Source: an uncultured bacterium
GTDB lineage: Bacteria; Verrucomicrobiota; Kiritimatiellia; RFP12; UBA1067
Assembly: GCA_902770045.1 (NCBI GenBank)
Contig: CACXRO010000014.1
Coordinates: 27,516 to 91,515 of the forward strand
Reading direction: 5' to 3'
DNA length: 64,000 nt
Shown: one piece after another, positions 2,842 through 10,647 of the stretch
Layout of the letters: every line of letters begins with the position of its first letter
How positions within the stretch are numbered: position 1 is the first letter of the stretch
The notes under the pieces: generated by a model
Databases searched by the model: none
What the model was told of the DNA's origin: nothing
What the model saw: only the letters and a program-made list of their open reading frames with translations
Made by a program: the position numbers and the translations under genes

Positions 2842-4037
2842 CTATGCTTCCAGCCGGCGCGCGATCGCCTCGGCAAGTTCGCCGCGGACACCGGCCTCGG
2901 ACGCGAAACGCAGCCAGTCGCGGACGGCGCCCCTCACTTCGTCAAGGACTGCGCGCGCACGGCGCTCGCGCATGTTGGCGAACGTCGCCAAGGCGAGGAT
3001 GTCCGCTTCCTCAATGCCGGTGCGCCCCATTCGCCGCGCCTATCCATCAGGTACGCGATGTTCTTCACGTGGTCGTCGCAGTTCCACGCGAGGACGTTGA
3101 ACGCCATGCGGCGGAATAGCTGCTCGTCCGCCCGCGCGTCGTTCACCACCTGCCGCGTGACGCGAAACGCCTGCTCGTAGGAATATCCGGACGGGTCGTT
3201 GAAATCCATGTGCGCCATCGCCCCCAGCGTCTGCGCATGCAGCTTGCCGCCGTCCGGAAGCCGGTCGAACCGCCGCGTCATGAAGTGCCGTCCGTCCCAG
3301 AGACGGCATTCCGTCATCTCTATCCCGGCGGCACGGGCCATGAGATGGTAGGCATACTCGACGCGGCCATAGCCCCACTTGTCGTCGCCCTCCCTGTCGC
3401 CGTTGCCCGCGATTCCGTCGAACTTGACGAGCCAGTAGCCGAATCCTCCGGGAAGCGCAATCTGGCCGGAGCGCACTTCCCCCGTCGCCTCGTTCCAGCC
3501 GATGAGCGCCTTCGCCCTGGCGCCGCCGGCGGAAGATCCGACCCTGAGGATGGAGGCGTACCGCTTCATGTCGGGGACGAGCCTGGCGACGGACTCGGTC
3601 CGCACCCTGAGCACCTCGGCAGCCAGTTCGGCAAGGGCGTCGACATGGAGTTCCTCCGACTTGTCCTCGTCATCGAACAATGCCGGCCTGTACTCAAGCG
3701 CCCCCATCCCGCGAACGCCGGTGTAGCAAAGGCGTTCAATCGGCGTGAGGCTTTCCGGCAGCCGCCCCTGCGCCTTCAGCCACGCACCGATCACTGCGTT
3801 GCCGAACTTGTCCGGAAGCGAATCGGACAGCATTCCCGGGAGCCCGTGGAACGAGACCTGGGGAAGCGCGGCAAAAGAATACGTTCCGGCGCCTACGGGC
3901 ATCATCAACGGCGACGGCTCGATGCCCGCAACAATAAACTCCCGGTCATATGCAAACGACGCCCAGGAAGATCCCTCGGTCCTTGACACGACGCCAATGC
4001 GCCGTCCCCAAAGATAGACTTCCGCCGCTTCGTTCAT
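2842..4037 (-). pseudogene. hipA: HipA-family Ser/Thr kinase toxin, disrupted near 3013-3030 (internal deletion/frameshift)
   Basis: ORF 2934..4037 has the HipA N-terminal domain and the catalytic CDDHVKN motif. The expected W-x-LAPAYD segment is truncated to EWGAPA. The C-terminal tail (GRTGIEEADILALA...WLRFASEAGV...) continues in another frame as ORF 2842..3030. Confidence 0.65.
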
Positions 4038-4369
4038 TGGTCAGTCCCCCACACTTTGGCCGCCGCGCGCCTCCGCCGTGCGCGCTTCGGCAATGTTCGC
4101 TTTGCGAGGATGTCCTGCGGCGACAACTGCACCTCCGGAAGCAGCGACTCAAAACCATCCGTCAGCGACAACGCGCCACAAACGGCAAAGAAAACATCAA
4201 GCCGAAGTCCTCCAGCACCAGCCTCAAGCCGCTCAAGTGATCGCTTGGACACTCCAGCTCGCTGCGATAGCTCTGCCTGCGTTATGTTGCGAGCAAGCCT
4301 GACTTGCGCGAAACGCCTACCCGCCTCGCGTAAAGCCTCGTCCACAGTCATTGCCACATTGAATTTCAC
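4034..4369 (-). CDS. hipB: HipB-like XRE-family HTH antitoxin
   Basis: Contains ...LARNITQAELSQRAGVSKRSLERLEAG. There is a 4-nt overlap with the hipA start. The track start 4369 is a GTG. An in-frame ATG at 4351 (MTVDEAL) is an alternative start. Confidence 0.7.
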   Translation of the reverse strand: MKFNVAMTVDEALREAGRRFAQVRLARNITQAELSQRAGVSKRSLERLEAGAGGLRLDVFFAVCGALSLTDGFESLLPEVQLSPQDILAKRTLPKRARRRRAAAKVWGTDQ

Positions 4370-4388
4370 AATTCTACCTTTCTGGCGA

Positions 4389-4394
4389 ATTATA
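4389..4394 (-). promoter_or_regulatory. -10 hexamer TATAAT (no TG extension), proximal hipB promoter candidate
   Basis: Minus strand reads aaGGTATAATtcgcc, 19 nt upstream of GTG 4369. Confidence 0.4.
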
Positions 4395-4429
4395 CCTTAG
4401 TTACGCCTATTACTCGCCAACAACTGCGT

Positions 4430-4438
4430 ATTATACCA
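4430..4438 (-). promoter_or_regulatory. extended -10 TGGTATAAT, distal hipB promoter candidate
   Basis: Minus strand reads gggttgTGGTATAATACgcag. Confidence 0.5.
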
Positions 4439-4475
4439 CAACCCTCCGCAGTTGCGCAAGGGGCACGAGCCGGTC

Positions 4476-4525
4476 ACAGGAAAGTGTTTGAGTTGAGAGC
4501 GTTTTGGGGGTTGAGTTGGGGGAGT
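4476..4525. repeat. direct repeat copy B flanking the hipBA module
   Basis: See copy A. A 24-nt identical core is followed by a related gttgagttggggg stretch. Confidence 0.8.
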
Positions 4526-4545
4526 CAATGGTTTGAGTTGCGTTC

Positions 4546-5346
4546 CTATATCCCTCTGAAGAATTCCAGCAATGTTTTGATGACCTTTTCAACTGGCTCG
4601 TCAATCCATGCGTAATCTGGATTCGCCAGCCTCTTCAGAAAGGTCTTGCTGGAGAATATCCGCCCGAGCCGCCGTTCGATGTCGAGGACATCGTTCTCGA
4701 GCATTCCTACGTCCTCGAAGATGCATATCCGAAGGTAATCTCCCAGCACCTTGGCATCCACGCGGCTGCAGAGGTAGTAAAGGTCGTACACATCCTTGTA
4801 CCGCGTAGAGACAACTCCAAGCTTGAGCAGGCTTTTCAGCTTCTCGACAAAAATCTGCTCCTTGGAATTGACAAGAAGAACCACGCCGACGTCGTTTGAA
4901 ACCACCTTGAACCTGAAGTCCACCTGCTCAATTAACTTGTTGCCATGTACACCGATGTCGACTTTTGTCCTTATCGATCTCCCCGCGTCATCGGTCAGGA
5001 CTATGTTTGCCCGCATTCCTTTGTATTCGCCCTGCCGCAATTCCTGGATTTCGCCTTCAATCCGGATCTCGCATCCGGCAACGCGGTTGAGGCGTTGCAC
5101 GAAGCGCCTGATGGACGCATCGCCAAGGGAATAGCCGAGGAAATCGAAATCCATGTCTATGGTGGCACGGCGCACTGCATCTGATATCCCGCTCATGACC
5201 ACACCGCCCTTAATCGTCACCTTGTCGTGGAATCCGGCATCCTCGATTGCCTTGAGAACTATGTCATGGGCAATCTTGGCTTCAGCCTTGCGTGGCGGAT
5301 ATCCGGCCGCCTTCAGCGTTGCGGCGATATCATTGAAATCCATCAA
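4546..5346 (-). CDS. AbiEii/AbiGii-family nucleotidyltransferase toxin (type IV TA / abortive infection)
   Basis: KIAHDIVLKAIEDAGFHDKVTIKGGVVMSG...TIDMDFDF matches the family's N-terminal KGGTAL...D.D pattern as I remember it. The gene is AT-richer than its surroundings. Confidence 0.65.
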   Translation of the reverse strand: MMDFNDIAATLKAAGYPPRKAEAKIAHDIVLKAIEDAGFHDKVTIKGGVVMSGISDAVRRATIDMDFDFLGYSLGDASIRRFVQRLNRVAGCEIRIEGEIQELRQGEYKGMRANIVLTDDAGRSIRTKVDIGVHGNKLIEQVDFRFKVVSNDVGVVLLVNSKEQIFVEKLKSLLKLGVVSTRYKDVYDLYYLCSRVDAKVLGDYLRICIFEDVGMLENDVLDIERRLGRIFSSKTFLKRLANPDYAWIDEPVEKVIKTLLEFFRGI

Positions 5347-5882
5347 AACACCTCGCTTTCGATAGTCCGCAATATAGACTCCTTTTTGGGGAACACATCA
5401 AGATAGTCCGTTAGCTTCGCGGGATAGAGCGTGTCCCTTATCCGGCGGAAGGACTCAATGACCTCCTTGTAGAGGTCATAAGGTAGCTTTGTCTTGTTTC
5501 TTGCCGTCTCTATAAGCAGTCTTTCCTTGTCGAAGATACGCGAAACATCGTCGTTCAAGAACTTATGGGAAACGACGCCAATCCCCACCGTCCCCTTGGG
5601 CAGAAAGTGCTGTACGACCCGCTCATCATAAATCTTCGCCGCGTCCCTATCCGTTGCAAGATGGAGCGCTTCTGGAACTGAATCAGAAAGGTCATAGTAA
5701 AAATATGCGCTTTGCAGCGTCACAACCGCGTTGGGATATCTAGCCAGCATGACTTCGACTTCCGACCATTCCGCCTGATCACTATAGAGGCCCAAGGCGA
5801 CCTTATGCAGTTCGCCATTGCGTATCAGAAGTTCTGCCCGATACCGTCCGCCGTATTTCTCACAGCATTCTGAGAAACTCAT
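5343..5882 (-). CDS. AbiEi-family antitoxin / transcriptional regulator
   Basis: The N-terminus ...LIRNGELHKVALGLYSD is typical of the AbiEi_4 wHTH. There is a 4-nt overlap with the toxin gene. The track start 5888 is a GTG, and I prefer ATG 5882 (MSFSECC). Confidence 0.55.
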   Translation of the reverse strand: MSFSECCEKYGGRYRAELLIRNGELHKVALGLYSDQAEWSEVEVMLARYPNAVVTLQSAYFYYDLSDSVPEALHLATDRDAAKIYDERVVQHFLPKGTVGIGVVSHKFLNDDVSRIFDKERLLIETARNKTKLPYDLYKEVIESFRRIRDTLYPAKLTDYLDVFPKKESILRTIESEVF

Positions 5883-5933
5883 CACCACTACATCGCCCTC
5901 CGCGTTTTCATATTTTTGCGTAGAATGGTGTGT

Positions 5934-5942: not shown

Positions 5943-6005
5943 TACCTACCCAATAAGTGTCAATCGGCGTCAGATTGGCGGGGATTGGACGTATATGAGC
6001 ATGGT

Positions 6006-7661
6006 ATGAAAACTGACAAGCATAGCAAGAGGAAGTTCGCACGGACGAGATTTCTCGCGGCGGTGGTGACGTCGTCGCCGGCGGTCGTATTCGTCTATTC
6101 GCCGCTACTGGCCGGGATGACCGTCGTCGGCATCGTTGTCCCCTTCGCGATGGGGCGCTTCATCGACGCGCTCGTGGGCGGCCTGCCGCCGGTTGCTCCG
6201 TTCGCGGTCCTCGCCGCGCTGCTGGCAGCCCGCGCCGTCCTGACGCCCTGCCTCCAGCGGTTCGCCATCTCCCGAGCCAGAATGGTAGAGCTGCGGCTTC
6301 AGGAGCGCGTCCTCGCCGCTGTCATGGACTTTCCTCCCGCCGAGCTTTCGCCGCTCGCCGACGGATCGCTCGTCGCCAAGTTGACGCGCGACGCGTATGC
6401 CGTTGGCGGGTTCGTGAGCGGACTCTACCCGCGGCTGCTGACCGCCGTCGTCACGATGGCTGCGGCCGGCATCGCGCTGCACTCGCGCTCGCCCGTGCTT
6501 TCCATTGCCTTCATGGCGTTCATACCGCTCGCAATTCTCCTCTTCGTCCCCTTCACGCGGCGCTTCGCCGCCAACGCCCATTCTGTGCGCAAAAAGAGCG
6601 ACGGCGCATTTGCCGCGCTCTTCGACTTCTTCCGCTCACTCCCCTTCCTGCGCACGCTCGACGCCGAGCGCCGCTTCGCCGAGGCGCCGCGGCAGTCGCT
6701 GCAGGAGCTCAAGGACGGCAACTGCGCGATGGACAGGCTGACGGTCGCGTTCGGCGCACTGCTCGGCGCTACCTTGGTCATGGGGGAAATCGCCGTCCTC
6801 GGCGTGGCCGGCGCGCTCGCCGCCAGGGGCGCGATTCCGGTCGGGGACGTCGTGGTCTACCAGATGCTGTTCCTCGCGGCGATGCAGTCCGTGCAGGGCA
6901 TCGTCTCGCTCCTGCCGGAGACCGCGGCGCTTCGCGAAGGCGTCGACTCGCTGGACGAAATTCTCGGCCGCGCGCCGCCGCGCCGCGGCGGACGCCGGAT
7001 CGACGCCGTGGAGAGCGTCGAGTTCCGCGGCGTCACGTTCGCCTACCCGGGCGCGGACGCAAAGCCAGTAGTCAAGGACTTCTCCGCCTCCTTCCGAGCC
7101 GGGAGAATCGTCGCGATAGTCGGCGCCAACGGCTCCGGGAAAACGACCCTGCTCAGGCTGGCAACCGCCGCGCTGGCGCCGCAGGCTGGCGAAATCCTCG
7201 TCAACGGCTCGCCCATCGCGGCACTCAACGAGGGGTTCTTCCGGCGAAGGCTCGGGATCGTCTTTCAGGACAGCCTGCTCGTCTCCGGCACGGTGCGCGA
7301 CAACATCACGTTGCGGGATCCCGACTTCACGGCAAGCGACATCGACGAGGCAATGACGCTGAGCGGGCTAAAGGAGGTAGTCGGACGGCTCCCGGACGGA
7401 CTCGACACGCGCGTCGGACTCAACGGGCAGTCCCTTTCGGGCGGGGAAATGCAGCGCCTCGCGATCGCCAGGGCGCTCATTCGCAGACCAGGCATCCTCG
7501 TCCTCGACGAAGTGACGAACCATCTCGACGCGGAGGCGCGCGCCGGTTTCGGGAAACTCCTGCGCCGGCTGGCGCCAGGACGCATAGTCCTCGTCGTCAG
7601 CCACGACCACGCCATAATCGAACTCTGCGACGAAAAAATTTCCTGTCAGATTCCCGGATAG
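6006..7661 (+). CDS. fused permease/ATPase ABC exporter (type I exporter fold); candidate peptide exporter of the graspetide cluster
   Basis: Walker A GANGSGKTT, signature LSGGEMQR and Walker B ILVLDE are present, with N-terminal TM helices. The start at ATG 6006 (MKTDKHSKRK) is preferred. In-frame ATG 5925 is also possible. Confidence 0.8.
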   Translation: MKTDKHSKRKFARTRFLAAVVTSSPAVVFVYSPLLAGMTVVGIVVPFAMGRFIDALVGGLPPVAPFAVLAALLAARAVLTPCLQRFAISRARMVELRLQERVLAAVMDFPPAELSPLADGSLVAKLTRDAYAVGGFVSGLYPRLLTAVVTMAAAGIALHSRSPVLSIAFMAFIPLAILLFVPFTRRFAANAHSVRKKSDGAFAALFDFFRSLPFLRTLDAERRFAEAPRQSLQELKDGNCAMDRLTVAFGALLGATLVMGEIAVLGVAGALAARGAIPVGDVVVYQMLFLAAMQSVQGIVSLLPETAALREGVDSLDEILGRAPPRRGGRRIDAVESVEFRGVTFAYPGADAKPVVKDFSASFRAGRIVAIVGANGSGKTTLLRLATAALAPQAGEILVNGSPIAALNEGFFRRRLGIVFQDSLLVSGTVRDNITLRDPDFTASDIDEAMTLSGLKEVVGRLPDGLDTRVGLNGQSLSGGEMQRLAIARALIRRPGILVLDEVTNHLDAEARAGFGKLLRRLAPGRIVLVVSHDHAIIELCDEKISCQIPG

Positions 7662-7735
7662 CCGTCCGTATACAAGAACGTAGCGGGCGAGTGTCCGCTG
7701 CATTGGTTAACCAAAACAAAAAGGAAACAACAAAA

Positions 7736-7837
7736 ATGACACCAAATGACATCGCGACCGATATCGCTGGGCTTGACCCAAACAAGCCGACCACGTACTT
7801 CACCTACACGTTTGAAAGGTTGGATGACGCACAATAA
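7736..7837 (+). CDS. candidate graspetide precursor peptide (33 aa): MTPNDIATDIAGLDPNKPTTYFTYTFERLDDAQ
   Basis: Too short for the ORF track. The RBS is aaAGGAAAcaacaaaaATG and the stop is TAA at 7835-7837. The C-terminal half is rich in Thr (x4) and Lys with Glu/Asp (x3). It lies 70 nt upstream of the ATP-grasp gene. Confidence 0.55.
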   Translation: MTPNDIATDIAGLDPNKPTTYFTYTFERLDDAQ

Positions 7838-7851
7838 TTAGTGCAAAACCC

Positions 7852-7881
7852 AATCGGGGCTGGCAATAGTCAGCCCCGATT
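7852..7881 (+). terminator. perfect 11-bp hairpin after the precursor ORF (attenuator or partial terminator candidate)
   Basis: aatcggggctg-gcaatagt-cagccccgatt. There is no clean U-tract, so it may be a processing or attenuation structure. Confidence 0.45.
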
Positions 7882-7907
7882 ATCTCAATCCTCACATAAT
7901 AAGATCC

Positions 7908-8843
7908 ATGATCTTCATATATACCTTCAGCCAGGACTCGACCACTGACATAGTATTGGAAGAACTAGGCAAAAACGATGTTCTACGATTGAATATCGAC
8001 AAAACAGAGAATTTCGCATGGGATTTTCACCGCTATGGATTTTACATCGTTGACAAGTCGAACAACAAGGAAATTTCCGACAAAACAATATCTTCTTTCT
8101 ACCTTCGCAAACCAATTTTTCTAGATAGTATCGACATACCAAGATTCGGATGTGTAGAAAACTGGCGTCGAGAGGAAACGAGCGAGTTGTTTCAGGACTT
8201 CTACCGCGAATGTCAGCATCGCGGACTCGTCACACTCGTTCGCTCTCAGGACAACAAATACGGCAAACTGCGGCAGCTCCTCGTCGCACAGAAATATTTC
8301 CGCGTCGCCAAGTGGCACTTCTTCCATGGCAAGCTGCCCGAAGAGTGCAAACGCGGCAGATGGGTGGTGAAGTCGATGACGCAAACGTCTATCGGGGAAA
8401 ACAAGGTTTTCTTCGTCAAAGAAGTCGATCCCGCCGCGCTGGACCTCTCCTATCCGTGGTTCGTGCAGGAGCGGATCGAGGGCGAAGAGGAAGTGACGGT
8501 AGTCTATGTCGACGGCAAGACCTACGCTGCAAGCGCGGCGCGTGAATCGTTCGGCGGAGAGGACTCGCGGAAGTCGCTGCTTGAGCATCCAGTTGCCTGG
8601 CCGCGATGCGAGCTGACGCCGGAGGAGGAGCGCGCGATACGCGGCTTCATGGATGAGACGGGCTACCGGTTCGGGCGCTTCGACTTCATCCGCAAGGACG
8701 GCGAGCTGTGGTTCCTGGAGCTGAACCCGAACGGACAGTGGGCGTGGCTCGACGAGAAGAACGAGCACGGGCTCGTCTCAATGGTAGCTGGCGCGATCAA
8801 GGCCGAAGACCGGACGCATCGGGCGCGTCCATCTCTTCTCTGA
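7908..8843 (+). CDS. MdnC/MvdD-type ATP-grasp macrocyclase (graspetide synthetase)
   Basis: The N-terminus MIFIYTFSQDSTTDIVLEEL...LRLNIDK and C-terminal FDFIRKDGELWFLELNPNGQWAWL resemble MdnC (VLIVTFSRDNESIPLV...; IFLEINPVGEFFWL) from memory. The first ~300 nt are AT-rich. Confidence 0.7.
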   Translation: MIFIYTFSQDSTTDIVLEELGKNDVLRLNIDKTENFAWDFHRYGFYIVDKSNNKEISDKTISSFYLRKPIFLDSIDIPRFGCVENWRREETSELFQDFYRECQHRGLVTLVRSQDNKYGKLRQLLVAQKYFRVAKWHFFHGKLPEECKRGRWVVKSMTQTSIGENKVFFVKEVDPAALDLSYPWFVQERIEGEEEVTVVYVDGKTYAASAARESFGGEDSRKSLLEHPVAWPRCELTPEEERAIRGFMDETGYRFGRFDFIRKDGELWFLELNPNGQWAWLDEKNEHGLVSMVAGAIKAEDRTHRARPSLL

Positions 8844-9411
8844 CCTTCGCGGCGGTTTCGCGCAGCTTCGCGGTGAGGCGGGCGCGGATCTGGTAGAGGT
8901 TGTCGCGCGAGAGGCCGTAGAGCTTCATCACCGCCTCGGTGTCCTGCCCATCAACCGTGCTCGCCACGAACGCCGCGTAGTGGTCGGGGCGGACTTCCGG
9001 CTTGATGCGGCGCAGCGCCTCCTCCAGCGCGGCGGCCTGCCATTCGCGCTCGGAGAATCCGTTGTCGTCGCCAGGCTTCGTCTCTAAGACGTCCTTCAGC
9101 GCGGCGTCGCGGTTCCTCTCCCGGAACTTGTCCTTGACGCGCCAGTGGACGAGCCCGGTCAGGTACGACCTGAACTTGCCCTTCGCGCGGTCGTACTGGA
9201 ACGTCGGGAGGTTCCGCGCGAGGTCGGAGAAGACGACCTGCAAGACGTCGTCCGCGTCATCCTCCGAGAGCCCCTTGGAGCGCGCGATGGAGAAGATAAA
9301 CCCCGCATAGAGGTCGAAGAGCCGCTGCCAGGCGGCCTGGTTGCCGGTGTCCGCGACCGCCCTGATTACGCTGGAGCGCGTCGCCTCATTATTGAAGTGT
9401 CTGTAGGTCAT
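8797..9411 (-). CDS. ECF-type RNA polymerase sigma-70 family factor
   Basis: Region 2-like DDADDVLQVVFSDLARNL and region 4-like YGLSRDNLYQIRARL are present. There is a 4-nt overlap with the upstream kinase gene, and a convergent 47-nt overlap with the ATP-grasp 3' end. Confidence 0.75.
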   Translation of the reverse strand: MTYRHFNNEATRSSVIRAVADTGNQAAWQRLFDLYAGFIFSIARSKGLSEDDADDVLQVVFSDLARNLPTFQYDRAKGKFRSYLTGLVHWRVKDKFRERNRDAALKDVLETKPGDDNGFSEREWQAAALEEALRRIKPEVRPDHYAAFVASTVDGQDTEAVMKLYGLSRDNLYQIRARLTAKLRETAAKVREEMDAPDASGLRP

Positions 9412-10544
9412 TTAGAATCGCTTTCGTCACTCTCGTTATCAGTGGACTTCGGCGCGAAGTCAGCTTGCAGCCTGGCAAGATGTTCCTTCTGCTCGTTTTT
9501 CATTTCCTCAAACTGCGTGGAAAGTTCCATGTCCAACTCCCCGCTCCTAATCCGCTGTAGATTCGGGTCGTTCTTAACAGCATCTTCAACCAGCGATTTT
9601 TTCACCTCCTGCACGGAGACCGAGCGTCCACTGGAGGCGACAAGAAACCAGATGGCACCAATGGCGGCCAACGCCAGAAGCGCAATTGCGACCTTGAACA
9701 GAGGAGAACCTACAACCACGATTCTGCGATTAAGGCTTTCGAAGTCCTTCAAGAGCGCCTTGGCAGACTGGTAGCGTCGGGATGGTGTTGGATCAGTTGC
9801 CTTGTTGAGGATACGCCACCAGGCGGGGAAGAACCTTGATCCCGTATCCGCCTCCAGCGCAGGGCCCTTGTCCAGATCCTCGATTTTCCGGCCAAAGCTC
9901 GCGGCCTTCAGAGTGAGGCCGAGGCTGTAGACGTCGCCGGAGGCGGCGGTGAAGCTCTCCGGCGGAACATAGCCGGGGGTGCCGACCAGCGATGCCGCCG
10001 CAGCTTCCTCGACTACAAGTCCGGGGTCGGAAAGAACAGGACGGCCGCCGACATAGATTATGTTCCCGGGCTTGATGTCGCGGTGCAGCAGATGGTGGCG
10101 CTGGAGCGCGGCAAGTCCCTTGGCGAGGGTGACGCCAAGCTTGACGCACTCGCCGAGCGGCAGCGCCTTTTCGCCGGCGATGACGCTGGCAAGCGTCTTG
10201 GGGCGATAACCGGCTGACGCTTCCTGTGGACCGCCGAATTCGTCGTCCGCAAGCTCCATAACGGCAAAGAAGCCCCACGGCTCCTCCGCCAGTTCCAGCA
10301 TCCGGACAAGCCCTTCCTGCGGAGGAATCGCCCGGTAGAGTTTTGCGCCGCGCAGCTCGCGCTCGAAGCGCTCATCGCCAATATCTTCGCAACGGCAGAC
10401 CTTGACCGCCACGCGTCCGCCGTCAGGCGCGGAGGCGAGATAGACCGTGCCGTACGCGCCGCGGCCGATCTCCTGCTGGAGCCCGTATTCCCCGCATTGA
10501 CGCGGAAGCTCCCCACCTCCATCATGTATCGTGTCGAAAAGCAT
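9408..10544 (-). CDS. Ser/Thr protein kinase with a C-terminal TM helix and an extracytoplasmic coiled-coil tail
   Basis: Motifs GRGAYGTVY, AVKV, HRDIKPGNI, SDPG and GTPGYVPPE are present. The TM helix is PLFKVAIALLALAAIGAIWFLVA. Confidence 0.85.
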   Translation of the reverse strand: MLFDTIHDGGGELPRQCGEYGLQQEIGRGAYGTVYLASAPDGGRVAVKVCRCEDIGDERFERELRGAKLYRAIPPQEGLVRMLELAEEPWGFFAVMELADDEFGGPQEASAGYRPKTLASVIAGEKALPLGECVKLGVTLAKGLAALQRHHLLHRDIKPGNIIYVGGRPVLSDPGLVVEEAAAASLVGTPGYVPPESFTAASGDVYSLGLTLKAASFGRKIEDLDKGPALEADTGSRFFPAWWRILNKATDPTPSRRYQSAKALLKDFESLNRRIVVVGSPLFKVAIALLALAAIGAIWFLVASSGRSVSVQEVKKSLVEDAVKNDPNLQRIRSGELDMELSTQFEEMKNEQKEHLARLQADFAPKSTDNESDESDSK

Positions 10545-10551
10545 ATGACGT

Positions 10552-10560
10552 ATTATACCA
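10552..10560 (-). promoter_or_regulatory. extended -10 TGGTATAAT, 7 nt from the kinase ATG (leaderless configuration)
   Basis: Minus strand reads aaaataTGGTATAATACGTCATATG, with the ATG at 10544. Confidence 0.6.
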
Positions 10561-10647
10561 TATTTTTGTCGCGGTCCACGACCGACTTTGGCGGCACGGG
10601 GACAGTCCCCACAAATCCGAGGGGTCTGTCCTATGTTCTCTGCCGCA

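Follow-up and report, generated by a model that had tools for sequence, protein, structure and literature searches.

The window analysed here is a stretch of 64,000 nucleotides (64 kb) of DNA from an uncultured bacterium of the Kiritimatiellia (contig CACXRO010000014.1 of assembly GCA_902770045.1, positions 27,516 to 91,515), and our subject is a 33-codon open reading frame (ORF) within it. The ORF lies between the gene of a fused ABC exporter and the gene of an ATP-grasp ligase, which starts 70 nt 3' of it, and the gap before the ligase gene holds a stable hairpin. Genes for an extracytoplasmic function (ECF)-type sigma factor and a Hanks-type Ser/Thr protein kinase follow on the opposite strand (Table 1). 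Our analysis makes it probable that the ORF encodes the precursor of a graspetide, a side-chain cross-linked ribosomal peptide, and that the ligase is expressed by read-through past the hairpin.

Table 1. Features of the cluster, in window coordinates.
Feature	Position	Strand	Remarks
Promoter-like motif GTCAGATT-N13-CGTA	5969..5993	+	Just 5' of the exporter's probable ATG at 6006 (13 nt)
ABC exporter, fused permease and ATPase	6006..7661	+	Pfam ABC_membrane, ABC_tran
Promoter-like motif GTCAGATT-N14-CGTA	7645..7670	+	Overlaps last ABC codons; likely precursor promoter
Inverted repeat AGCGGGCgagtGTCCGCT	7682..7699	+	Predicted 5' untranslated region (UTR); conserved in 25 upstream regions
Perfect 12-bp palindrome TTGGTTAACCAA	7703..7714	.	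Predicted 5' UTR; nearly invariant in 24 of 25 loci, unique in window
Shine-Dalgarno-like AGGAAA	7722..7727	+	8 nt 5' of precursor ATG
Precursor ORF	7736..7837	+	33 codons, translation MTPNDIATDIAGLDPNKPTTYFTYTFERLDDAQ, then stop
Leader part of precursor, residues 1-13, MTPNDIATDIAGL	7736..7774	+	Conserved among 123 distinct peptides
Spacer and core, residues 14-33, DPNKPTTYFTYTFERLDDAQ, with stop codon	7775..7837	+	Family-kept residues T20, T23, T25, D30, D31
Hairpin, 13-bp stem and 4-nt loop	7852..7881	+	Candidate attenuator or 3'-end stabiliser
ATP-grasp ligase, graspetide macrocyclase homologue, 311 aa	7908..8843	+	NCBIfam sub-threshold, profile and fold matches
ECF-type sigma factor	8797..9411	-	Pfam Sigma70_r2, TIGR02937
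Hanks-type Ser/Thr protein kinase	9408..10544	-	Pfam Pkinase; operon with sigma factor

The first-pass annotation of this sequence had proposed the ORF together with an AGGAAA ribosome-binding site 8 nt before its ATG, and both are present as described. Related loci (numbered with an L below) retained the ORF: each of the 28 genome loci that contain the ligase start had a reading frame starting MTPNDIAT.I.GL directly 5' of the ligase gene, so it is not missing from syntenic homologues, and members of the close ligase family were always accompanied by this peptide family rather than by a different peptide. A peptide of the window's family was also found beside a ligase only 44% identical to that of the window (L038). 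The 33-aa window peptide was too short to serve as a query, and a profile of 24 peptides was therefore built on an alignment headed by a 46-aa relative; it recovered 237 peptide clusters from metagenomes, all unnamed or annotated as 'hypothetical'. Gene calls of the identical 33-aa sequence exist on 18 public contigs, every time unnamed. Its cluster contained four more 33-aa microvariants (N16D, F22Y, A32E or Q33H) and one 44-aa member, which is a call from an upstream start, and T19, T20, T23, T25, E27, D30 and D31 were retained by all of these. No NCBIfam family matched the 33-aa peptide, and a six-frame scan of the window returned just one leader-like ORF and no further precursor genes. Shine-Dalgarno-like motifs (AGGA/GGAG) preceded the peptide gene in 23 of 24 loci and the ATP-grasp gene in 5 of 24. 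From this record we consider it highly probable that the ORF is a true gene and encodes the precursor on which the neighbouring ligase acts.

Two further observations concern the precursor gene. A homologue from a goat-omasum metagenome-assembled genome (MAG; L004, 3827-3964) has an in-frame TGA within the core (YTYCSG, TGA, NGQRLDDSHTWD, stop), which a pseudogene, a sequencing error or recoding of the stop could explain. The G+C content of the window falls to 0.40-0.48 over positions 7600-8200, a stretch that takes in the precursor gene plus the 5' third of the ATP-grasp gene; it rises within the latter from 0.40 to 0.65, and the flanking ABC, sigma factor and kinase genes are at 0.65-0.70.

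The downstream gene had been read as a graspetide-type ATP-grasp ligase, an assignment borne out by NCBIfam, profile and Foldseek matches. No Pfam family matched the protein. Its NCBIfam matches were to ATP-grasp ribosomal-peptide maturases only, and all were below threshold: the best curated family was TIGR04187 (GRASP_SAV_5884; 75.6 bits, cut-off 350), followed by the MvdC model TIGR04185 (64.3 bits, cut-off 425), the MvdD model TIGR04184 (37.5 bits, cut-off 475) and the grasp-with-spasm family TIGR04192 (34.1 bits, cut-off 230), so that the ligase belongs to none of these subfamilies as they are defined. The neighbourhood also lacked the radical-SAM gene of grasp-with-spasm systems. A single-sequence search of the PDB matched AMdnB, MdnB, CdnC, PruB and MdnC at E 1.5e-9 to 6e-3. 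With a profile built from 76 members of the family (25-80% identity to the window protein), AMdnB, MdnB, CdnC, MdnC and PruB were matched over their full length (E 1.9e-38, 9.5e-37, 2.3e-35, 8.8e-31 and 3.2e-26, respectively), and the next match was D-Ala-D-Ala ligase at E 0.007. In the alignment of these 76 sequences K155, R257, D259 and E271 were invariant and N273 nearly so, and D259, E271 and N273 aligned with the D, E and N of the FDF...FLExNP motif in AMdnB and MdnB. An AlphaFold2 model computed from a diverse alignment including distant representatives reached a predicted local distance difference test score (pLDDT) of 95.7 and a predicted template modelling score (pTM) of 0.91; an earlier model from close homologues only (42 sequences, 74-98% identical) had a pLDDT of 42 and was discarded. 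Foldseek returned AMdnB, PruB, MdnC, CdnC and MdnB as its top 17 PDB matches (E ~1e-14, probability 1.0), followed by PsnB and RimK (~1e-8). The locus thus has a macrocyclase-homologous ATP-grasp ligase with intact ATP/Mg2+ site residues and, beside its gene, a precursor gene with a conserved leader and a core that offers hydroxyl/amine and carboxyl side chains, as is expected of a graspetide cluster.

Among 339 relatives of the ligase found in a set of 5.8 billion proteins, the best 120 all had an identity of 74% or more, had no name or were 'hypothetical', and came from Kiritimatiellae MAGs wherever the source was named. A genome scan yielded 34 loci, nearly all in MAGs from the rumen or gut of goat, sheep, yak and cattle, with the labels Kiritimatiellae, Verrucomicrobia or Lentisphaerae.

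The peptide family was then compared across 22 loci. Mean pairwise identity was 0.73 for peptide residues 1-13, 0.36 for the remaining peptide and 0.74 for the ligase, and core similarity hardly followed ligase similarity (r = 0.21). The division into leader and core that had been proposed is therefore real, with the correction that the conserved leader comprises residues 1-13 and not 1-16. A strict core pattern, T/S-x-x-T-x-[S/T/C]-x4-14-DD, was matched by 99 of 123 distinct peptides; in these 99 the central Thr was invariant and the third nucleophile was Ser (56), Cys (25) or Thr (18). The Asp-Asp pair was found in all 123 peptides except two divergent ones, and the tail behind it was mostly five residues long and ended in W-D or W-G. 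In the window peptide these conserved positions correspond to T20 (in most members), T23, T25 (Ser, Thr or Cys in relatives), D30 and D31. As to the ring residues originally put forward, T23, T25, D30 and D31 hold family-wide and T20 mostly, but T19 and E27 are confined to a single subfamily, YTFER[LM]DD. No conserved Lys was seen in the peptide family. Stacked ester rings are chemically reasonable with these residues, and the alignment suggests two conserved donor-acceptor pairs for the family and a possible third for the subfamily of the window. We regard a product with side-chain ester rings that join conserved Thr/Ser to the Asp-Asp residues as likely.

Cys-type cores make up about a quarter of the 99 motif-matching peptides. 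They are of the type W-S-T-x-x-T-[Y/F/H]-C (for instance L005 151-288 and L013 1839-1976; example sequence MTPNDIATSIASLGSAEQGGVRWSTMATYCLCGSSQVPDDQRSWD), and it is possible that they carry a thioester ring or that the Cys residue has a different role.

In the mechanism that we propose, the precursor would be transcribed from its own ECF-type promoter inside the end of the ABC gene and translated from its strong ribosome-binding site, and residues 1-13 would act as the recognition leader for the ATP-grasp ligase. Using ATP, the ligase would activate the side-chain carboxylates of D30 and D31, possibly also that of E27 in the window's subfamily, and the activated carboxylates would be linked to hydroxyl groups on T23, T25 and/or T20, with two (perhaps three) nested omega-ester rings as the outcome. 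The upstream ABC protein would export the product. The hairpin would stop most transcripts or stabilise their 3' ends, and the ligase would be made by read-through at a much lower level, with many substrate molecules per enzyme.

Comparison with known graspetides places the cluster near, and apart from, several of them. The microviridin ligases (MdnC, MdnB/AMdnB; PDB 5ig9, 5ig8, 7m4s) are full-length homologues (profile E 1e-38 to 1e-31) and the top fold matches, and as in microviridin (MdnA) the precursor gene adjoins the ligase gene and encodes a conserved leader and a core with Thr/Ser and Asp/Glu. Unlike the microviridin system with its two ligases, the window cluster has one; its peptide has neither the PFFARFL-type leader helix motif nor the TxKYPSDWEE core, and its leader, of just ~13 residues, occupies the very N-terminus. 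Microviridin also differs in that the window family has no conserved Lys and no acetyltransferase gene, and without a conserved Lys no lactam is expected. Hairpin-type omega-ester graspetides (plesiocin with PsnB, PDB 7drm, and the thuringinin group) are said to be groups 2-3 of Lee et al. 2020. They share with the window family a Thr cluster, a short turn, clustered acids and a single ligase, and by analogy this plesiocin-like core layout suggests nested ester rings across a beta-hairpin. PsnB, however, lies structurally further off (E 1e-8) than the ligases of microviridin type (E 1e-14) and is missing from the sequence profile matches; furthermore, the window core is not repeated, its acids are Asp-Asp instead of Glu-Glu, and the spacing ranges from 4 to 14 residues in the window family. 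The SAV_5884-type actinobacterial graspetides (TIGR04187; PruB of the prunipeptin cluster, PDB 9bou) gave the best curated score and a PruB profile match of E 3e-26, but the score is far under the cut-off, there is no O-methyltransferase, the leader is another one and the host phylum is Kiritimatiellota (rumen).

The perfect 11-bp hairpin described 14 nt after the stop codon was confirmed, and one G.U and one C-G pair lengthen its stem (AATCGGGGCTGGC/GTCAGCCCCGATT, loop AATA) to 13 pairs. Its free energy is -25.2 kcal/mol (z = -7.2), and none of 200 dinucleotide shuffles folded as well. The lack of a U-tract was equally confirmed (3' tail ATCTCAAT): of the features of an intrinsic terminator, the GC-rich stem-loop is present and the U-tract directly 3' of the stem is absent, and a consensus terminator scan did not call the window hairpin. 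Rfam gave no match in 7400-8100, and the hairpin sequence occurs only once in the window, which rules out a dispersed repeat. A GC-rich hairpin with a stem of 8-16 bp was found at the equivalent place in all 27 loci analysed, beginning 8-27 nt past the peptide stop (61 nt in L004). Many loci share the stem core GGGGCTGG...CCAGCCCC and several have quite different stems (e.g., GCCTGGGAACGG, GGAGGTGGCGGC, GGCCCCGGCGGCG); RNAalifold gave 11 consensus pairs, 10 of them with compensatory double changes. The hairpin is conserved as a structure. A T-run of at least 3 stood at its 3' foot in 12 of 26 related loci. L038 has a clear T6 tract, and L036, of the sister clade described below, has a T5 tract behind a 12-bp stem, which makes a canonical terminator.

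How the hairpin bears on the ligase depends on what lies behind it. The distance from hairpin to ligase ATG is 17-54 nt in 26 of 27 loci, L010 being the exception with 140 nt. It is 26 nt in the window, where no promoter-like site was found in between; 26 nt leave no room for a promoter plus 5' UTR. Since the ligase gene also lacks a ribosome-binding site and starts so soon after the hairpin, it would be expressed via read-through and at a much lower level. In lantibiotic operons, where such read-through logic is established, an attenuator hairpin stands after nisA and before nisB. The window resembles nisA/nisB in having a stable hairpin directly after the precursor gene and before a co-oriented modification gene with no promoter between, which implies partial read-through; it differs in class of peptide and in phylum, its copy has no U-tract, and partial termination is in its case deduced from the layout. 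On balance we think that the hairpin reduces ligase expression relative to the precursor, and the overall pattern fits ligase read-through behind a leaky terminator or 3' stabiliser and hence a high precursor-to-enzyme ratio. The hairpin might instead be a full terminator, or a mere 3' stability element of the ABC-precursor transcript, with an ATP-grasp gene that has its own promoter and no part for the hairpin in any ratio. The strong stem (-25 kcal/mol) and the canonical U-tracts of some relatives such as L038 and L036 would suit this, but the distances in 26 of 27 loci leave a promoter and 5' UTR no space and a search with the promoter motif described below found no copy between hairpin and ligase ATG, and we judge it unlikely.

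Several points weigh against a graspetide reading of the locus. The window peptide is the shortest type in its family and has neither the G.GNI segment between leader and core nor the C-terminal TWD tail, and its leader is without the P-h-h-x-h motif that roughly half of the graspetide leaders carry (Makarova et al., 2022; PMC8939145). The cluster contains no leader protease gene, and by Pfam the ABC exporter has no C39 peptidase domain. The Foldseek matches, despite a probability of 1.0, had template modelling (TM) scores of just ~0.46, which may come from differing domain openings in the compared structures. Finally, the window hairpin without its U-tract is not a canonical intrinsic terminator.

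The peptide could also be a substrate of other chemistry, such as RimK-like amino-acid addition, ligation to a second molecule, or phosphorylation of the Thr core by the kinase. RimK and D-Ala-D-Ala ligase are indeed the next structural neighbours after the graspetide ligases, the ligase scores far under the cut-offs of all curated graspetide ligase families, and a Ser/Thr kinase is conserved nearby. Against this, the sequence profile matched graspetide macrocyclases only (E 1e-38 to 1e-26) before dropping to D-Ala-D-Ala ligase, the conserved hydroxyl residues and Asp-Asp pair are what ester cross-links require, and the kinase gene is in an operon with the sigma factor gene, which points to regulation. 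Such chemistry therefore seems improbable, and ester cross-linking by the graspetide-type ligase is preferred.

Another explanation would deny the peptide any function: the small ORF would be a regulatory upstream ORF whose translation, together with the hairpin, attenuates the ATP-grasp gene. The layout is attenuator-like, with a short ORF, a strong hairpin 14 nt on and the next gene right after. However, the codons for conserved leader residues wobble in their third position (Pro CCA/CCT/CCG, Ile ATC/ATA/ATT, Gly, Leu) and Ser at leader position 11 alternates between the AGC and TCN codon families, which indicates selection acting at the protein level. Specific Thr and Asp-Asp positions are likewise kept amid variable surroundings, as would be unexpected if the peptide sequence were irrelevant, no alternative anti-terminator pairing was apparent in minimum-free-energy folds, and the neighbouring gene encodes a peptide-modifying ligase. 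We consider a regulatory upstream ORF very improbable. A chance open frame in an intergenic region, for which only the 33 codons and the lack of an NCBIfam family could speak, is effectively refuted by 28 of 28 syntenic loci, 237 peptide clusters and coding-type substitutions.

Upstream of the precursor gene, the ABC exporter was found directly 5' of the peptide in 27 loci at 58-96% identity, and L029 had a weaker match on the opposite strand. The mechanical ORF call of the ABC gene starts at a TTG (5916); ATG 6006 is the probable start. The pattern GTCAGA-N14-18-CGTA has exactly two matches in the window, one before the ABC gene and one before the precursor gene, and both copies stand at equivalent positions in nearly all related loci (L001-L032). 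Across 25 aligned loci the copy before the precursor gene is nearly invariant as DNA, third codon positions included. The 25 aligned upstream regions run from TTGTCAGATT (the last ABC codons) over ~14-15 nt to TCGTAT, then an inverted repeat, a palindrome and an A-rich stretch with the Shine-Dalgarno motif. The CGTA element, which is -10-like, suggests an ECF-type promoter. That the cluster's own ECF sigma factor drives both promoter-like motifs is possible, and we put it forward tentatively. In the predicted 5' UTR the inverted repeat shows compensatory or wobble changes in some loci, and the palindrome may be an operator; together they could serve as an operator, stabilise the 5' end or form a regulatory RNA element.

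Further motif copies were noted elsewhere. Several loci have divergent minus-strand copies beside the ABC-proximal one, and in L006 the genes 3' of such extra copies are ATPase-like ORFs with no obvious connection to the cluster. If transcribed from the 5969-5993 motif, the ABC gene would have a 5' UTR of just ~5-13 nt.

The sigma factor gene is convergent with the ligase gene, and their 3' ends overlap by 47 bp (8797-8843). By their tblastn coordinates, most related loci may have an overlap of this kind; relatives with ligases of 311 and of 322 aa differ at the C-terminus, which would alter the overlap. The sigma factor was found within 6 kb in ~25 of 34 loci and the kinase in ~24 of 34, rearranged gene orders included. 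The kinase has one C-terminal transmembrane helix (hydrophobic stretch at about residues 281-302). A TATAAT hexamer stands ~7 nt 5' of the kinase ATG (window 10545-10575, minus strand; ggTATAATacgtcatATG), and this suggests that the 5' UTR of the kinase-sigma operon is very short or absent.

Pairs of ECF43-type sigma factors and Hanks kinases have been described (EcfP-PknT and EcfK-PknS), and in region 2.2 of ECF43 an uncharged, Thr-containing motif (QTTA) replaces DxxD and is phosphorylated (PMC13147305). As in these pairs, the ECF sigma gene of the window is co-located and co-oriented with the gene of a membrane Hanks-type kinase, and there is no anti-sigma gene. The kinase co-occurrence is thus shared, but region 2.2 of the window's sigma factor retains the acidic DxxD (DADDVLQ), and membership in ECF43 was rejected. 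We know of no ECF sigma factor/kinase pair described in connection with a cluster for a peptide that is made on the ribosome and modified after translation (RiPP). A more far-reaching model, which we think doubtful, is that the five genes form a graspetide autoinduction loop, in which the exported peptide would act on the membrane kinase, the kinase on the ECF sigma factor and the sigma factor on the two GTCAGA-N15/16-CGTA promoters, and the rings of Cys members could be side-chain thioesters. To our knowledge a side-chain thioester is unprecedented for ATP-grasp RiPP ligases. The thioester version would recall the thiolactone autoinducers of staphylococci.

One contig (DGHT01000045.1) carries both an intact cluster (L003), with no sigma factor or kinase within 6 kb, and a second, degenerate copy (L034) consisting of a 51-residue C-terminal ligase fragment and a 40-residue ABC fragment. 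The degenerate copy adjoins an intact sigma factor/kinase pair, and four extra minus-strand copies of the promoter-like motif lie upstream of it.

Beyond the close family, an exhaustive search of 1.84 billion representatives with the ligase returned 65 clusters at E <= 1e-30, 221 at E <= 1e-10 and 1722 at E <= 1e-3. Relatives at 30-47% identity were all 'hypothetical', without a Pfam domain and under every NCBIfam cut-off; ten of this wider clade scored 61-98 bits against TIGR04187 (cut-off 350). Their hosts, where a source was named, were Verrucomicrobiaceae, Chlorobiaceae and other MAGs. The small ORFs adjoining these ligases were mostly of another precursor type, M..TP.DL..AP...EF.LPAYDWNKQ...T..S.QTF...G.P.D...DND, with L038 and its peptide of the window's family as the exception. 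An N-terminal [T/N]PxD[L/I] motif is common to the window leader, L029 and six distant loci with ligases ~35-50% identical (L035-L040), and it gives indirect support to a putative leader-dependent binding of the precursor by the ligase.

Sister-clade precursors with the EF.LPAYDWNKQ leader motif and an acidic DND tail were located at L035 4797-4988, L036 4756-4944, L037 ~4810-5001 and L039 2192-2377, beside ligases 30-47% identical to that of the window, in Verrucomicrobiaceae and environmental MAGs. None of the 187 supplementary files to Makarova et al. (2022; PMC8939145) has LPAYDW-type strings, and the lone 'LPAYD' match there is an unrelated chryseoviridin precursor. This precursor family appears to be undescribed in the literature searched.

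The same 187 files, which belong to the largest open graspetide census, were free of the strings PNDIAT, TPNDI, NDIATD and YTFER and of the word Kiritimat, and the census has neither bacteria of the Planctomycetes-Verrucomicrobia-Chlamydiae (PVC) group nor sigma factor/kinase partners among associated genes (Makarova et al., 2022; PMC8939145). The literature searched, which left Ramesh et al. (2021) and Lee et al. (2020) outside its scope so that a prior description is possible, held no match linking Kiritimatiellae to this RiPP. The peptides appear to be a previously undescribed graspetide group from uncultured rumen Kiritimatiellae. Their enzymology and operon logic are those already known from graspetides; the very short N-terminal leader, the core motif and its variants with Cys, the host phylum, the conserved hairpin as a candidate attenuator and the ECF sigma factor/kinase pair with its promoter motif appear to be new.

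The group would come from the Kiritimatiellota, an uncultured and poorly known phylum that ruminant guts commonly harbour. Graspetides as a rule inhibit proteases, and the products may therefore matter in microbial competition or protist predation in the rumen. With more than 100 natural core variants on one 13-residue leader and a highly conserved ligase, the leader/ligase pairing is attractive for studies of substrate tolerance and for engineering peptide cyclisation. The compact, conserved design, which combines a dedicated promoter motif and a structured 5' UTR with a strong ribosome-binding site for the precursor only and a covarying hairpin, offers a natural test case for precursor-to-enzyme stoichiometry in RiPP systems, and the link to an ECF sigma factor and Ser/Thr kinase hints at regulated, possibly self-induced production.

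Directly upstream of the cluster, positions 2934-5888 of the window hold toxin-antitoxin-type genes on the minus strand, namely a HipA-like kinase (2934..4037) and an AbiEii nucleotidyltransferase (4546..5346), each accompanied by a small ORF as its partner. The closest relative (L001) has both pairs, L002 only the HipA-like pair, and L028 only a short fragment of the HipA-like partner ORF. These genes are a variable flank and lie outside the cluster.

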